Of a stretch of 64,000 bases of DNA, positions 2,625 to 60,733 are shown in pieces. The notes beneath the pieces are model-generated. The model saw nothing but the letters and a program-made list of their open reading frames with translations. It was not told the origin of the DNA and ran no database searches. Positions within the stretch are counted from its first letter, which is position 1; each line of letters begins with the position of its first letter. This DNA comes from Escherichia phage VB-EcoM-WM, in sequence record PQ014731.1. One strand, 5' to 3'. The position numbers and the translations under genes were made by a program.

Positions 2625-3674
2625 TTATTTAACGTGCTTGAAAATACCAGCCAACTCGGTCATTGTCATGCGAGTGGTCTTCATAAGGTCTGTCATAGCC
2701 TTCTCCATGATTGGAGATACTACCATGAAGTTACCTTTGGTGAAACCTTTGTTCCAGTCGGTAACTAATAGTGGTTTAAGTCCGGCCCCAAGACGCTCAC
2801 CAGTTAAAGCACAACATTTTCGAATGTATGTGCTCTTAAACTGGCTGAAGGACAGATCAACTTTCATACCTGCATCGTAGAACGTCTGGCAATAGAAAGT
2901 GTAAGCTTTGGCAATCTCAACATCGTCAGGCAGTGCAGGAACCTCTTCTGTAAGCTCTTCTTCGACCCCTTGAGGCTCTTTTTCCTCTTCGTAAGCCTGT
3001 TGCGTCATCTCTTCAATCTCCTCTACTACAGGCTCGTTTACAATGTCAGAAATGTGCTTGTTGGCTCCACGATTAGCCATGAAGTTTTTAAAATCCTGCA
3101 TTGGTGACATATCTTCCTCCCATTCTTCGTCAAAGAGTGCTAGTTTATCCTCTTCCGTTCCATATTGCAAGATGAAATCTTCAAAAGTGTAATCACCTTT
3201 CAATTTCTCCATACGCTCTTCGCTCAGGTGGAGCATCATCTGCTGGACAATTTTTCGATCAGTTTTGTCTTTAATCAAGACTGCGGTCTTTTTATCTACC
3301 AGGCAGTCCTTTAGGGAGTTGCATCTCAATCCCACCACACAACAATTATCAACCGCATAAGGACCTTCATCATCTATCCGCTCCAGAGATGGGTAGAAAG
3401 GATTTCCCAGTCCGTTTTCATCTGTGTGCATGTCGAAAGGTATAAGGGTATAGTCGCATACTCCCTCTCCTAAAAGTTTTTTACCAAATAGGAGATATTC
3501 TTCCCATGACAGGTTGAACTCTATATCCCGTTTCCGTGCGTTATTCTGTTTGCGTCTGTATTTTTTGAGCAAGCGCTCTAACTCTTCTGGTGTATAATAT
3601 TTTTCAAGATTCATGAGTTGTCTCTTGTTCTCTGTGGGTGGAGAAATCTTACCAAGTGCCTGAGAAGATGTCAA
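2625..3674 (-). CDS. hypothetical protein with HNH-like RID motif (349 aa)
   Basis: SLERIDDEGPYAVDN motif resembling phage HNH-type proteins; acidic middle region; track start is TTG, alternative ATG at 3614. Confidence 0.5.
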   Translation of the reverse strand: MTSSQALGKISPPTENKRQLMNLEKYYTPEELERLLKKYRRKQNNARKRDIEFNLSWEEYLLFGKKLLGEGVCDYTLIPFDMHTDENGLGNPFYPSLERIDDEGPYAVDNCCVVGLRCNSLKDCLVDKKTAVLIKDKTDRKIVQQMMLHLSEERMEKLKGDYTFEDFILQYGTEEDKLALFDEEWEEDMSPMQDFKNFMANRGANKHISDIVNEPVVEEIEEMTQQAYEEEKEPQGVEEELTEEVPALPDDVEIAKAYTFYCQTFYDAGMKVDLSFSQFKSTYIRKCCALTGERLGAGLKPLLVTDWNKGFTKGNFMVVSPIMEKAMTDLMKTTRMTMTELAGIFKHVK

Positions 3675-3687
3675 CCTGAAAAACGTA

Positions 3688-3716
3688 TTGACTTTACTCT
3701 AAATCCACGATATAGT
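3688..3716 (+). promoter_or_regulatory. sigma70-like promoter
   Basis: TTGACT-17nt-TATAGT, about 40 nt upstream of ATG 3757, in divergent intergenic region. Confidence 0.5.
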
Positions 3717-3756
3717 GCACCCATTCAAAAGAAAACTAACATAGGAGCACTTACTC

Positions 3757-4656
3757 ATGGCAAATCTTAACAGTTTTAGCACCAGGTGGAAACAAGATAT
3801 CACAACCAATCTCTCAGCAGGTGATATCCTTTCTGCAATTTACGAGGCTTTGGATGATAAAGCTACTTCAAAATCGGTTTGTACTAATCCGCTAATCCCT
3901 GTAGTGATGAAGGTAATTGAGCGGAGGTCGGTATCTGGGTCCGATAAGTGGACATACCTTGATAATGGAGGGCATACTTACTCCAACGGATATGTTGATA
4001 TAAAAGTGGAATACGCAGTATCATACCGCCGGAGCGGTTCTGTAACTTTCAACTTCTCTGGAGGTTTCCGATCTCTGGCAACTTCACCTTTTGTTTCCTC
4101 AGAGGAGAAGTTTGAACTTCCGTTCCTTTGGATGATGGCTAACGCGACAGGCAAAACCCCTGTGAGCATTCGCGTAAAATACAACTACAACGGATCTAGT
4201 AAGATCTATGCCGAGAGTGTCTCAGCAAGTTTTTATTTTGTGATGGGGGATGGAATCCTCAAACATATAAAGATGTGTGATATGCATGATGTTATAAATG
4301 AAGTGACTGATAAGAATGTTCTGGTGAAGGATCTCAACAATTTTTATACACCGGGAGACTATTACGTCAACCGTCCACTGTGCATCTTTAATGCTGCACA
4401 CCCTTTAGGTGAGTATTTGATTGCCAATAGTGATATTGCCAATAACCGCTTCGAGGTAGCAAGAGTGCAGAATGAGGTATTGACATCTTGCAAGAGTGGT
4501 GATAAGTTTACCGAAGAAGAGATGGGCGTTTTAGAAATGATGGGATATAAGTGTAGCCTTTGGGTAGATGAGGTGTTTAATGACGGCATCTATGGACAGG
4601 ATATTTACCCGTTAAAGAAGTATACTGATTCCAGTTTAATTTACGCAGAGATTTGA
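3757..4656 (+). CDS. hypothetical protein (299 aa)
   Basis: First ORF of rightward block; RBS-like AGGAG upstream. Confidence 0.55.
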   Translation: MANLNSFSTRWKQDITTNLSAGDILSAIYEALDDKATSKSVCTNPLIPVVMKVIERRSVSGSDKWTYLDNGGHTYSNGYVDIKVEYAVSYRRSGSVTFNFSGGFRSLATSPFVSSEEKFELPFLWMMANATGKTPVSIRVKYNYNGSSKIYAESVSASFYFVMGDGILKHIKMCDMHDVINEVTDKNVLVKDLNNFYTPGDYYVNRPLCIFNAAHPLGEYLIANSDIANNRFEVARVQNEVLTSCKSGDKFTEEEMGVLEMMGYKCSLWVDEVFNDGIYGQDIYPLKKYTDSSLIYAEI

Positions 4657-4658
4657 CT

Positions 4659-58638: not shown

Positions 58639-58989
58639 TTACTGCAATAGTTTTTCAATAGCCGCTTCCATGCTGCTTGCAACAGCCTGAACTCGGATAT
58701 TCATCTCTTCTTGGTGGATCAACTCCTTAAGCTCTTTAATGGTAAATTCTTTAGAGAAACCTTCCACCATAATTTTGTGCAAGGCTTCTTGCGTGTCCAC
58801 CTGCAAGAACTTTTCCAGTTTGTTGGCAGAGGCTTCTAAATCAGCCCGAATACGAGGGTCATCTGTGCGATTCAGCATCAGGCGTAAGCCATCAAGATTA
58901 GTAGAAATAGCGTCTGCATGTTGAGTAACTAACCGTGGCAAAATGAGATCTACAAACTTATTAGCCAAATCGATACGTTCTTGTGTCAC
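58639..58989 (-). CDS. hypothetical protein (116 aa)
   Basis: ORF-track ORF. Confidence 0.5.
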   Translation of the reverse strand: MTQERIDLANKFVDLILPRLVTQHADAISTNLDGLRLMLNRTDDPRIRADLEASANKLEKFLQVDTQEALHKIMVEGFSKEFTIKELKELIHQEEMNIRVQAVASSMEAAIEKLLQ

Positions 58990-59161
58990 TGTTGCACCCC
59001 CTCTTCATCCTCATGATGTTTCTTTTCACGCTTGTGTTTTTTCTTAAGCTCAAGCGCAATCTCTTTTTTGTACGCCTTCTTCAAGGCCTTTTTAGCCATT
59101 TGGCACCTCCTCTGCTTTCATTACGCTAATTATAACCAACTTAACAAGACTTTGTCAACAG

Positions 59162-59635
59162 TTAGTCAACCTGAACCCAACCGCCTGCTACCTTTTTAAA
59201 CATTCTTTGGTTATCACTGCCTCGAAATGGTTTCTTGGTTGGTAAATCTTTTACATACTTTCCATCAATGACGATATCAGCCAGTTTAAGAACATCACTA
59301 GAGATATGCTCAAATGTGAACCCAGTATACACAAGAATAGTTTTCTTGTCACCAAACTTTTCCTTAATTCTCCTCATAAGGTCTATAATACCTGGCTCAT
59401 TATAAGTAGCCAAAGGCTCTCCACCAAGTAAAGAAATACCGCATACAGATTCATTGTCTAAATCCGACAAAATTTTCTGCAAATCTTCTTCGGTGAACTC
59501 TCTTCCTTTATCTTTTGACCAAAATGCTTGATTAAAGCAACCAGGGCAAGCGTGTGGGCACCCAGATACCCACAAAGCTGTCCTAATACCTGGCCCCTCG
59601 GTGTAAGATATCTCTGTGTATCCGACAATATTCAT
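59162..59635 (-). CDS. nrdG: anaerobic ribonucleotide reductase activating protein (radical SAM)
   Basis: CPHACPGC cluster, GPGIR and GISLLGGEP motifs; start adjusted to ATG 59635. Confidence 0.85.
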   Translation of the reverse strand: MNIVGYTEISYTEGPGIRTALWVSGCPHACPGCFNQAFWSKDKGREFTEEDLQKILSDLDNESVCGISLLGGEPLATYNEPGIIDLMRRIKEKFGDKKTILVYTGFTFEHISSDVLKLADIVIDGKYVKDLPTKKPFRGSDNQRMFKKVAGGWVQVD

Positions 59636-59748
59636 ACGTACTCCGCATCGCATTTAGGACAATGCCAAATAAAATCGTCCAGTGCCTTACACCAACGAAG
59701 ATTGCAACTACAGCCGCACTTGCAAATTTTATAAATACCTGATGACAT
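59632..59748 (-). CDS. small zinc-ribbon peptide (38 aa)
   Basis: MSSGIYKICKCGCSC...HCPKCD; strong RBS AAGGAGGT; stop overlaps nrdG start (ATGA). Confidence 0.45.
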   Translation of the reverse strand: MSSGIYKICKCGCSCNLRWCKALDDFIWHCPKCDAEYV

Positions 59749-59800
59749 ACTGCACCTCCTTAGTTAATAGCATGTTTAAGATATGTATATCTTTCTACAA

Positions 59801-60733
59801 TCATTTACCACAAATCCTCTTGTATACCTCTTCTACCGTGTCAAACACTTCAGGCCTGTAGTAGAAAAACTCAGTGCTACCGTCAAATTTTACAGGAAAG
59901 TTTATTTTATACTTGCTCAAGGCCTTATGCACAGATTTTTCTAAATCTACCATGTTTTGAGTTGATCCGCTCCATGTTTTTACTACGTGAAGAGTGTGGA
60001 CACCTGCGCCAGATTTACGAGCACTGTTAAGCACCTCATTTTTCCTCCTGTGCATTTTAACGCATACACCGATTTTCATAAGTGTTGGCACTTCTAAGTC
60101 ATCAACCATAATGTAGAGTTTACCGTACCCATGAGATAAGAATCCATTTTGTGCGCATTTACAGCAGCCACGACCACTTTTTAGGTTATTAGGTTTAGCA
60201 GACCACTTATACCCACAAATTTTGCACCTACATTGCACTTTTGTGTTATCATTGGCAATTTTCTCTAATATTTCTATGTCTGGGTTGGCTTTGTGGATAA
60301 TTGCAGCATGCTCCTTATGGGTTAACGCTTGACTTTGCCCACGTCTTAAGTCATAGCACTCTGGGCAACCGTTTCTTTGGTATAAGTGGTTTTCAGGGTA
60401 TTGTTCAAACACACCGTGTTCAGGGCAAACAATTTTTACAGGCGTTCTCATGTTCGCATATTTGACTAATGAGTAATCGTACTTGTCCCCATGAACAGCC
60501 ATAGCCTCTTTTATGAACTCTTCAGTGTTCTTTTTCGCTGACCCACCACACCTTGGACAACCATGATTCTTGAAAGCATGTGCCACAGGGGTTTGCCAGA
60601 ACTCACCGTGCTCAGGACAAATTATACACACAGGTGTCTTGTTGTTTTTATACTCCACTTTGAAGTAATCATATTTGTCACCATGTATAGTCTGAGCTTT
60701 TTCTATAAACTCTTCGGTTGTTAGTCTTCTCAT
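59801..60733 (-). CDS. T5orf172 (MUG113)-domain protein with three N-terminal zinc-ribbon repeats; free-standing homing-endonuclease-like
   Basis: Repeats CPEHG...H...GCPxC x3; C-terminal YGKLYIM...KIGVCV...GSTEFF resembling T5orf172. Confidence 0.6.
   Translation of the reverse strand: MRRLTTEEFIEKAQTIHGDKYDYFKVEYKNNKTPVCIICPEHGEFWQTPVAHAFKNHGCPRCGGSAKKNTEEFIKEAMAVHGDKYDYSLVKYANMRTPVKIVCPEHGVFEQYPENHLYQRNGCPECYDLRRGQSQALTHKEHAAIIHKANPDIEILEKIANDNTKVQCRCKICGYKWSAKPNNLKSGRGCCKCAQNGFLSHGYGKLYIMVDDLEVPTLMKIGVCVKMHRRKNEVLNSARKSGAGVHTLHVVKTWSGSTQNMVDLEKSVHKALSKYKINFPVKFDGSTEFFYYRPEVFDTVEEVYKRICGK

Follow-up and report, generated by a model that had tools for sequence, protein, structure and literature searches.

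How many of the homing-endonuclease-like genes in Escherichia phage VB-EcoM-WM (PQ014731.1) are mobile, and how do they relate to the replication and ribonucleotide reductase (RNR) genes around them? Within a 64,000-nucleotide (nt) stretch of this genome (the window), an initial annotation had listed two HNH genes in introns, an intein endonuclease, a T5orf172-domain gene between nrdD and nrdG, and two genes whose products share a RIDD-Y-DN motif, and had taken them together as a high density of homing endonuclease genes and as signs of active mosaicism. The analysis presented here makes it very probable that the window belongs to an rV5-like coliphage whose replication and RNR genes have been colonised, through homing, by five independent selfish elements, and that the sixth gene, a homologue of T4 Srd, is not mobile.

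Five mobile elements in a Vequintavirus

By sequence, the window is that of a Vequintavirus (rV5-like coliphage myovirus). When it was searched in three parts with megablast, more than 100 GenBank phages matched at near full length with 90-96% identity; the matched relatives, about 120 GenBank records with which the window is 92-95% identical, are nearly all Escherichia phages of this genus. The five elements are an intein in DNA polymerase (PolA), a group I intron with an HNH open reading frame (ORF) in the same gene, a second intron with an HNH ORF in nrdD, the T5orf172 gene, and a free-standing gene for a His-Me finger protein. Window-specific DNA was located with a base-by-base coverage map against the related phage JeffSchatz, in which 20840-21835, 22220-23061, 27842-28494, 59761-60880 and 61814-62583 have no counterpart. 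Of the roughly 5.0 kb that only the window has in this comparison, about 4.4 kb belongs to the five elements, and each is absent with codon or splice-site precision. Each element was also searched for among the relatives together with flanks of about 400 nt, and the carrier counts given below come from these searches.

The polymerase gene: an intein and a group I intron

The gene for the family A DNA polymerase is interrupted twice. Its 1132-amino-acid (aa) ORF, 18827-22225, stops artificially at ...IIYYHK. When the uninterrupted JeffSchatz polymerase (925 aa) was aligned by tblastn, residues 1-671 fell on 18827-20839, residues 673-808 on 21812-22219 and residues 809-925 on 23062-23412, the last at 99% identity. 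Exon 1, intein included, is thereby placed at 18827..22219 (+) and exon 2, from DEYQLQ to the stop codon, at 23062..23415 (+).

The first interruption, at 20840..21808 (+), is an in-frame insertion of 969 nt encoding an intein of 323 aa after ...GDAH, with Cys at the +1 position. The insertion is precise and lies in a conserved site of the host protein, flanked by JeffSchatz residues 671 and 673. The intein starts with CYSGDTQILT, contains a TxxH block (...VTDQH...) and ends in ...VYCVTVPSGAIIVRRGGKVAVCGN before the Cys, so that a nucleophile at position 1, block A/B motifs and a C-terminal Asn plus Cys are all present; across 20 aligned homologues C1, T66 and H69 do not vary. Its N-terminal part matches the AceL NrdHF intein 6ZGQ (E 7.7e-6 as a single sequence, 2.4e-13 with a family profile), and the NCBIfam model intein_Nterm scores 18.1 bits, under its cut-off of 24.5. 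An exhaustive representative search returned 7008 homologues (E <= 0.001), which sit full-length in PolA, the RNR small subunit, helicases, PhoH and other proteins; a separate homologue search gave no matches, probably through a word-index limit. From homology and motif the intein is predicted to carry an endonuclease domain of the LAGLIDADG type. Two motifs, LLIAxQADG and FIEELxxWDG, emerge from the alignment of 20 homologues, in which D127 and D222 never vary, the window intein has LLIAIHDDG and LSNWDG at the LAGLIDADG motif positions, and two of ten scanned homologues reach the Pfam LAGLIDADG_3 threshold within the homologous region. A PDB search with the endonuclease part alone found nothing. 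Carriers are rare: the intein is present in 6 of 118 relatives and missing from the other 112, the non-carriers among the matches listed aligning over 851-882 nt (1851 minus 969 = 882). The DNA just after the empty site is locally diverged, at 84% identity.

The second interruption is a group I intron of 842 nt at 22220..23061 (+), which splits the polymerase at YYH/DE (the slash marks the insertion point) and is exactly absent in JeffSchatz. Exon 1 ends in T and the intron in G (...CAT/AAATAAC...CTATTG/GAT). With intein and intron removed, the YYH-DEYQ join yields a polymerase ORF of 925 aa without internal stop, equal in length to the intron-less JeffSchatz protein; the YYH-DEYQLQ junction reads by eye as polymerase motif C. 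In a local search of 1.1 kb, the Rfam family Intron_gpI (RF00028) matched the intron over the full model (positions 1-253) with 29.6 bits (E 2.2e-5).

Within this intron, 22360..22866 (+) encodes a 168-aa HNH homing endonuclease of the I-HmuI type. Its product matches the PHROG HNH family phrog_59 (E 6e-38) and I-HmuI of phage SPO1 (PDB 1U3E; E 3.7e-6), and its VNHKDGNKYNN..NLEW..GN segment aligns to DHKDGNKDNN..NLRW..IN of I-HmuI, leaving the catalytic motif intact. I-HmuI, a nicking endonuclease of a Bacillus phage, is likewise encoded in a group I intron of a phage family A polymerase gene, although identity is low (about 20-30%).

The intron with its ORF is found in 30 of 120 relatives, and about half of the records are intron-less. 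One class, including rV5, keeps an ORF-less intron of about 270 nt. Direct alignment showed that rV5 and JEP1 both retain the two intron ends and lack the HNH ORF alone, with different boundaries, the JEP1 gap (22340-22867) being almost exactly the ORF. For the polymerase intron, every state of the homing cycle is thus represented: with ORF, without ORF, and with no intron at all.

The nrdD gene: a second group I intron

The gene for the anaerobic RNR, nrdD, is read from the minus strand in two ORFs, 62575-63744 (ATP-cone and NRDD profile positions 1-263) and 60844-61851 (NRDD 263-562 and Gly_radical). Mapping against the uninterrupted JeffSchatz NrdD placed exon 1, with the ATP-cone and the N-terminal half of the protein, at 62584..63744 (-), and exon 2, from CRSFLSKY to the stop codon and including the glycyl-radical domain, at 60844..61821 (-). 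Between them lies an intron of 762 nt, 61822..62583 (-), which splits the gene at ...VTSMG/CRSFL and is absent in JeffSchatz, WalterGehring and I29. Here too the upstream exon ends in T and the intron in G (...ATGGGT/AAACTA...CATAATG/TGTAGA), so that both introns obey the U(-1)/terminal-G rule, and the spliced NrdD has 712 aa with no internal stop. Intron_gpI matched with 32.9 bits (E 2.2e-6) in a local search, with the whole model covered. By sequence, both interrupting segments read as group I introns, and RNA splicing is predicted for each.

The ORF of the nrdD intron, 61972..62523 (-), encodes an HNH homing endonuclease of 183 aa (phrog_59, E 2.9e-33), 32% identical to the ORF product of the polymerase intron (E 1e-13); it carries VKHKGDNRKDN..NLEW..DN, matches the same PHROG HNH families, and shows an I-HmuI_NUMOD-like match below the Pfam threshold. 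The two intron HNH genes and the intein endonuclease of the initial annotation are thus upheld, and the intron ORFs can be taken as HNH genes despite weak HNH_3 scores, given PHROG HNH matches at E 1e-33 to 1e-38 and the I-HmuI match of the polymerase ORF.

At the window site the nrdD intron occurs in 17 of about 119 Vequintavirus records. It is 100% identical to the JEP1 copy over 750 nt (61750-62500), with flanking exons at 92-96%, and the DNA just beside the empty site is at 83% identity.

The intron resembles the T4 nrdD (sunY) intron in interrupting nrdD and in its core, where about 130 nt match the nrdD intron of T4-like phages at 82% identity. A common insertion site was considered and rejected: in the T4-like phage ELT1 the intron lies between residues 273 and 278 (window numbering), and in the window at 387/388. 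The ORFs also differ in type and in order, the 'homing endonuclease' ORF of ELT1 lying downstream of the shared core and the HNH ORF of the window upstream of it. A segment of 43 nt (61946-61988), overlapping the 3' end of the HNH ORF, is 97.7% identical to many Felixounavirus phages (Felix O1-like phages of Salmonella and E. coli), where it lies within or near nrdD or HNH genes. This hints, at the level of sequence, that parts of introns or endonuclease genes may have been exchanged between phage families.

Annotation of the NrdD start varies. In several relatives, JeffSchatz among them (636 aa), NrdD is annotated from an internal start that truncates the ATP-cone; translation of the window from GTG 63744 gives the full Pfam ATP-cone (residues 1-91) and 712 aa, as annotated in phage I29. 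The shorter start (region 63532-63744 (-)) is probably a mis-annotation in some records.

Two free-standing endonuclease genes

A T5orf172-family homing endonuclease gene of 310 aa, 59801..60733 (-), stands between nrdD exon 2 and nrdG, the gene for the anaerobic RNR activase (59162..59653 (-); Pfam Fer4_12 4e-43, Radical_SAM). Pfam T5orf172 covers residues 207-307 with 33.9 bits against a cut-off of 20, and the related MUG113 profile scores 20.3 bits. Residues 1 to about 195 match DUF723 (50.2 bits, in two stretches), CapR (41 bits) and DUF4379 (39.3 bits), and the translation shows three zinc-ribbon repeats (C/H-x2-C/H...C-x2-C, in the form ...H/C...C-P-x-H-G...GCPxC), as the initial annotation had described. 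The product belongs to the PHROG endonuclease family phrog_681 (E 7e-65); a PDB search with the single sequence returned nothing. The layout is that of the T5orf172 genes of ICP1 and other phages, in which a C-terminal T5orf172 domain follows repeated CapR/DUF723/DUF4379 zinc-finger units and of which 33% lie in RNR neighbourhoods, marking recombination boundaries (PMC10448857). The window gene likewise adjoins RNR genes and marks a boundary of sequence exchange; it differs in the host phage lineage.

Of 119 relatives, 18 carry the gene. Most of those without it match over 704 nt, with a gap of 1047 nt, and JEP1, ECML-10 and WalterGehring have a diverged endonuclease gene at the site. In bins of 250 nt the gene is 99.2-100% identical to the copy in I29 and 98.0-99.6% to that in A13b, with the adjoining nrdG side at 86-93%; the 3' end of nrdD beside the site is at 83% identity.

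The second free-standing gene, 27861..28484 (+), encodes a homing-endonuclease-like protein of 207 aa (phrog_1035, E 3e-41). Its relatives are labelled 'endonuclease VII' or 'putative homing endonuclease', and phrog_1035 itself 'endonuclease VII'. Of 198 homologues found, 43 diverse ones were compared: C12, C15, C38 and C41, forming a zinc ribbon, are invariant, as are P115, S116, R119, Y126 and N139, and D118, D122 and N130 nearly so. The family profile matches I-HmuI (E 7.8e-5), with R119 on the His of DHKDGN and the C-terminal part on the DNA-binding region. Against PacI the match is limited to the motif (E 0.025), where Y126 aligns with the Tyr of PacI 'EGYS'; a single-sequence PDB search gave a marginal PacI match (E 0.17). 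An AlphaFold2 (AF2) model of the protein reached a predicted local distance difference test (pLDDT) score of 92.3, and its top two Foldseek matches in the PDB were I-HmuI and PacI (probability 0.98 and 0.99, E 2-3e-3), with low template modelling (TM) scores (PacI 0.31-0.44), the proteins being elongated. No Pfam or NCBIfam model matched the product even at E 10; NUMOD-type domains are present in homologues.

The best reading of sequence and model together is a predicted nuclease composed of a Cys4 zinc ribbon, a Tyr-type His-Me finger and an I-HmuI/NUMOD-like DNA-binding tail, an architecture that appears to be that of I-HmuI/PacI-like homing endonucleases and not that of a T4 endonuclease VII homologue. 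PacI is a His-Me finger enzyme without the catalytic His, whose role is taken by a loop Tyr (PMC5714182, PMC3384342), and by analogy Y126 would be catalytic here (PMC5714182). The likeness to PacI (PDB 3LDY/3M7K; His-Me finger group 20 of PMC5714182) lies in the missing His, the Tyr in the loop between strands, the alignable motif DR-D-x3-GY-x3-N...N, and the rank of PacI as second-best Foldseek match (E 2.8e-3, probability 0.99). PacI is, however, a homodimeric bacterial restriction enzyme of 142 aa and the similarity is weak (E 0.025, TM 0.31-0.44), whereas the window protein combines a Cys4 ribbon at its N-terminus with a C-terminal DNA-binding part of the I-HmuI type and is encoded by a polymorphic, free-standing phage gene. 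With I-HmuI it shares the layout of HNH domain plus C-terminal DNA-binding part, and differs in having Arg in place of the catalytic His. The gene is present in 50 of 115 relatives; the others show a precise gap of about 641 nt.

The T5orf172 and PacI-like proteins might instead serve mainly as phage weapons, excluding co-infecting relatives, destroying satellites or degrading host DNA. In ICP1, nucleases of the T5orf172 family have been turned against satellites (PMC10448857), and a role as 'viral restrictases' has been suggested for viral homologues of PacI (PMC5714182). Around the T5orf172 gene, carriers and non-carriers also have strongly different flanks, as would be expected if non-carrier alleles were cut. 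Yet the free-standing genes are missing from 57-85% of otherwise near-identical relatives, hence dispensable, and they occupy intergenic spacers beside essential genes, like classic free-standing homing genes. A role as weapon is also compatible with homing, of which marker exclusion would be a by-product. As the main function of these two proteins it is considered unlikely.

Spread of the elements

The T5orf172 gene and the nrdD intron point to recent horizontal spread, because both are far more identical between phages than are their flanks (for the T5orf172 gene, 99-100% against 87-93%). The intron and intein sites fall in highly conserved coding motifs (DAH/C and YYH/DE in PolA, SMG/CRS in NrdD), and at the empty sites the local exon DNA is diverged despite proteins that are 93-99% identical; the diverged DNA fits co-conversion tracts or target-site variation.

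Under homing, co-infection with an element-free relative would allow the encoded nuclease to cut or nick that relative's allele at the insertion site or close to it, the targets being the conserved coding sequences at DAH/C, YYH/DE and SMG/CRS or, for the free-standing genes, the end of a neighbouring gene. Recombinational repair would then copy the element and some flanking sequence into the element-free genome. RNA splicing of the introns and protein splicing of the intein would keep PolA and NrdD functional, so that the elements would cost the phage little. Such a process would account for the mix of presence, absence and diverged flanks observed among the relatives.

Repeated deletion of ancestral genes in most lineages, with no endonuclease-driven gain and with the nucleases as relics, would be the opposite account. 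The rarity of the intein and its greater divergence relative to the exteins agree with it, and the existence of ORF-less polymerase introns with two different deletion boundaries (rV5 and JEP1) means that loss clearly happens. Vertical descent with loss cannot, however, yield a T5orf172 gene and an nrdD intron that are 99-100% identical where the flanks are 87-96%; the missing segments are delimited to the codon or splice site, and all five nucleases keep their catalytic motifs. Deletion as the general explanation is therefore regarded as most improbable.

Several results weigh against gain by homing of five working elements. Both introns score under the Rfam gathering threshold of 50 bits, and the two intron ORFs score 17.7 and 20.1 bits with Pfam HNH_3, under its cut-off of 24.8. 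The window intein has no direct match to any Pfam endonuclease model, its single-sequence AF2 model is useless (pLDDT 34), and its penultimate residue is Gly (Gly-Asn) in place of the usual His-Asn, with 'xGN' also the consensus of its homologues. Inteins without the penultimate His are known, so a Gly-Asn end does not exclude splicing. The intein also looks old or decaying and not recently spread, because it is less identical to the JEP1 copy (84-92%) than the exteins are (96-99%). The 27861-28484 product lacks the canonical catalytic His, and its activity would rest on analogy with PacI. The homing mechanism as a whole is read from sequence and genome comparison.

With these points counted, colonisation by homing keeps the high probability given above, and the window illustrates clearly how homing elements shape gene content. 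The mosaicism proposed in the initial annotation holds for the five elements, two of which are more alike between phages than their flanks, and fails for 2625-3674. As to high density, the five elements amount to about 4.3 kb (6.7%) of the 64 kb; judged by published homing endonuclease gene counts, this is comparable to T4 and below the Vequintavirinae phage CB7 (T4 15, CB7 23; PMC7344957).

The set of elements varies from phage to phage, and relatives have additional ones with no counterpart in the window. In WalterGehring, a free-standing endonuclease gene lies between the primase/helicase and polymerase genes, an nrdD intron occupies another position, and the diverged endonuclease gene (330 aa) stands at the nrdD-nrdG site. 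JEP1 has two nrdD introns. The coordinates of the relatives' further elements are 19634-20368 in L004, 12274-13266 and 14606-15139 in L006, and 10418-10927 and 11369-11902 in L002.

A fixed Srd homologue with a related domain

The sixth gene was listed as the ORF 2625-3674. Its start is most likely the ATG at 3614 (329 aa), as relatives annotate, which gives an Srd-like 'anti-sigma factor' gene at 2625..3614 (-). The motif S-x-x-R-I-D-D-x3-Y-x2-D-N is present, as the initial annotation had noted, in both 2625-3674 (-) (SLERIDDEGPYAVDN) and 27861-28484 (+). BLASTP between the two proteins aligns the motif stretch only; profile-profile comparison (hhalign) of the first 100 or so residues of the 2625-3614 product with the nuclease core of the 27861 family gave 91% and E 8.9e-7, a match that carries the likeness of the motif beyond chance. 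The shared RIDD-Y-DN segment is real homology and, judged from profiles and the model, corresponds to a PacI-like His-Me (HNH) finger with Arg for the catalytic His and an invariant Tyr.

Homology to T4 Srd is also evident (hhalign 97.0%, E 9.9e-11, 134 columns including SLERxD..GY..N), T4 Srd carrying SLERFD..GY..GN, and the protein matches phrog_1400, 'Srd anti-sigma factor', at E 5.8e-10. The rV5 protein gp11 has already been called an Srd homologue (PMC3606486). T4 Srd ('Srd anti-sigma factor', a postulated decoy of sigma70/sigmaS) shares the motif SLER(I/F)D-x3-GY-x2-(G/D)N but has 248 aa against 329 here, the window protein having in addition a linker rich in acidic residues and a C-terminal domain that is conserved. 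The Srd-like protein had no match in Pfam or NCBIfam even at E 10, and none in a single-sequence PDB search.

By sequence comparison the gene is a fixed early core gene, an Srd homologue, and not a mobile endonuclease gene, because it lies at the same position in 117 of 117 relatives, with 100% query coverage. This is the outcome that the initial annotation had itself named as speaking against a homing endonuclease gene. Its expectation of presence/absence polymorphism was borne out for the five elements, with precise boundaries, and failed for this gene; of the profile matches it had looked for, T5orf172 exceeded the Pfam threshold, HNH_3 stayed below its cut-off, and the two RIDD proteins had no Pfam or NCBIfam match.

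Two further interpretations concern the shared domain. The first is that it is not a nuclease but a nucleic-acid- or protein-binding module, and that 27861-28484 encodes a regulator like Srd. The canonical catalytic His is Arg in every member of the 27861 family, no Pfam or NCBIfam nuclease model matches the RIDD proteins, and the homologous Srd family is labelled a sigma decoy (PHROG, T4 record). PacI with the same substitution is, however, an active endonuclease using the loop Tyr (PMC5714182), R119, Y126, N130 and N139 are invariant or nearly so across the 43 diverse homologues, and the I-HmuI-like architecture, the NUMOD-type domains in homologues and the presence/absence polymorphism are typical of homing endonuclease genes. 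A binding module is accordingly judged very unlikely, and a PacI-like nuclease remains the preferred reading of 27861-28484.

The second interpretation extends the PacI-like finger to the Srd family itself (T4 Srd, rV5 gp11 and 2625-3614). Its N-terminal domain has Arg for the catalytic His, with the loop Tyr and both Asn conserved, and may be a PacI-type His-Me finger homologous to the nuclease domain of a homing endonuclease family in the same genome; on this view Srd would derive from a homing endonuclease by domestication, or might still be a nuclease rather than a sigma decoy. Drawn from profile comparisons and one confident model (that of 27861-28484), this proposal is given an even chance. 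If true, the PacI-type (Tyr) group of His-Me fingers, whose members as of a 2017 listing came mainly from giant viruses, would extend to a large phage homing endonuclease family annotated as 'endonuclease VII'. No description of a PacI-type finger common to the Srd family and the 'endonuclease VII' genes was found in the literature, and the observation may be new.

The C-terminal domain offers a further observation. Residues 235 to 300 or so of the Srd-like protein follow the pattern A-x2-Y...V-x-L-T/S-F-x-QFK...C-x-LTG...D...GN, which resembles, by eye, a degenerate second copy of the N-terminal domain (A-K/R-K-R...F-x-L-T...C-D-Y-T...ERIDD...Y...N). This suggests an internal duplication.

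Comparison with CB7 and consequences for annotation

Among the closest published parallels is CB7, with 23 HNH or LAGLIDADG homing endonucleases and with HNH introns in DNA polymerase and RNR genes whose splicing was verified by reverse-transcription PCR (PMC7344957). CB7 is of the same subfamily as the window phage; it also carries HNH genes that stand alone, and LAGLIDADG inteins interrupt some of its replication and RNR proteins. It differs in genus (Certrevirus), in having its inteins in a helicase, NrdA and NrdB and not in PolA, and in having its RNR introns in nrdA and nrdB and not in nrdD. In the annotations of the BASEL phages, orthologous genes are already called 'putative homing endonuclease' and the split polymerase and nrdD genes are already joined. 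The load of homing elements in the window is thus real, ordinary and already documented for the Vequintavirinae; T5orf172 genes beside RNR genes and the homology to Srd have also been published, and on these points current understanding is unchanged.

For annotation, PolA and nrdD are to be treated as split genes and joined, and PolA recorded as intein-containing. The 'endonuclease VII' gene is not a homologue of the Holliday-junction resolvase, and the 'anti-sigma factor' gene should not be named an HNH homing endonuclease.

Other features of the window

Gene order follows the annotated relatives JEP1 and the BASEL phages JeffSchatz and WalterGehring. Early genes occupy 1-3674 on the minus strand; a plus-strand block then includes rIIA/B, helicases, methyltransferases, primase/helicase and the family A DNA polymerase, followed by many small ORFs and a minus-strand block ending in ClpP, PhoH, nrdG and nrdD. 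ARAGORN found no tRNAs in the window, Rfam reported nothing at gathering threshold over its whole length, and comparison of 20 further mid-size ORFs with PHROGs yielded no extra endonuclease genes. One candidate was rejected: 52815-53276 (-), whose orthologue JEP1_156 is called 'HNH homing endonuclease' in JEP1, has no Pfam match and falls in phrog_7821 (E 7e-66), a family labelled 'virion structural protein'. A gene is annotated at the equivalent place in JeffSchatz and WalterGehring, which was counted against the JEP1 label, and that label is probably wrong.

Beyond the five elements, JeffSchatz lacks only two small segments, 39758-40144 and 42295-42523. The former contains an 87-aa ORF (39777-40040; phrog_17242, function unknown). 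The latter falls in an ORF-poor region, 41500-44370, about 2.9 kb nearly free of ORFs between convergent plus- and minus-strand gene blocks. About 2.5 kb of this region is left unannotated in relatives (JeffSchatz locus 40668-43223), and it is 85-93% conserved. Neither a tRNA nor an Rfam family was found in it, and it contains scattered short direct and inverted repeats with ATAGTTGCC as their core (42092-42292). The region may serve as an origin or have a regulatory role, or it may encode an undescribed RNA.

A paralogous pair of phrog_7379 genes, function unknown, lies about 2 kb apart at 47976-48371 (-) and 50174-50584 (-) (E 4e-66 and 4e-73). Finally, some 16-26 'Campylobacter phage' records in GenBank (MG0656xx; host C. 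jejuni, UNVERIFIED) are 93-96% identical to the window across its whole length; these are most likely mislabelled or contaminant coliphages.

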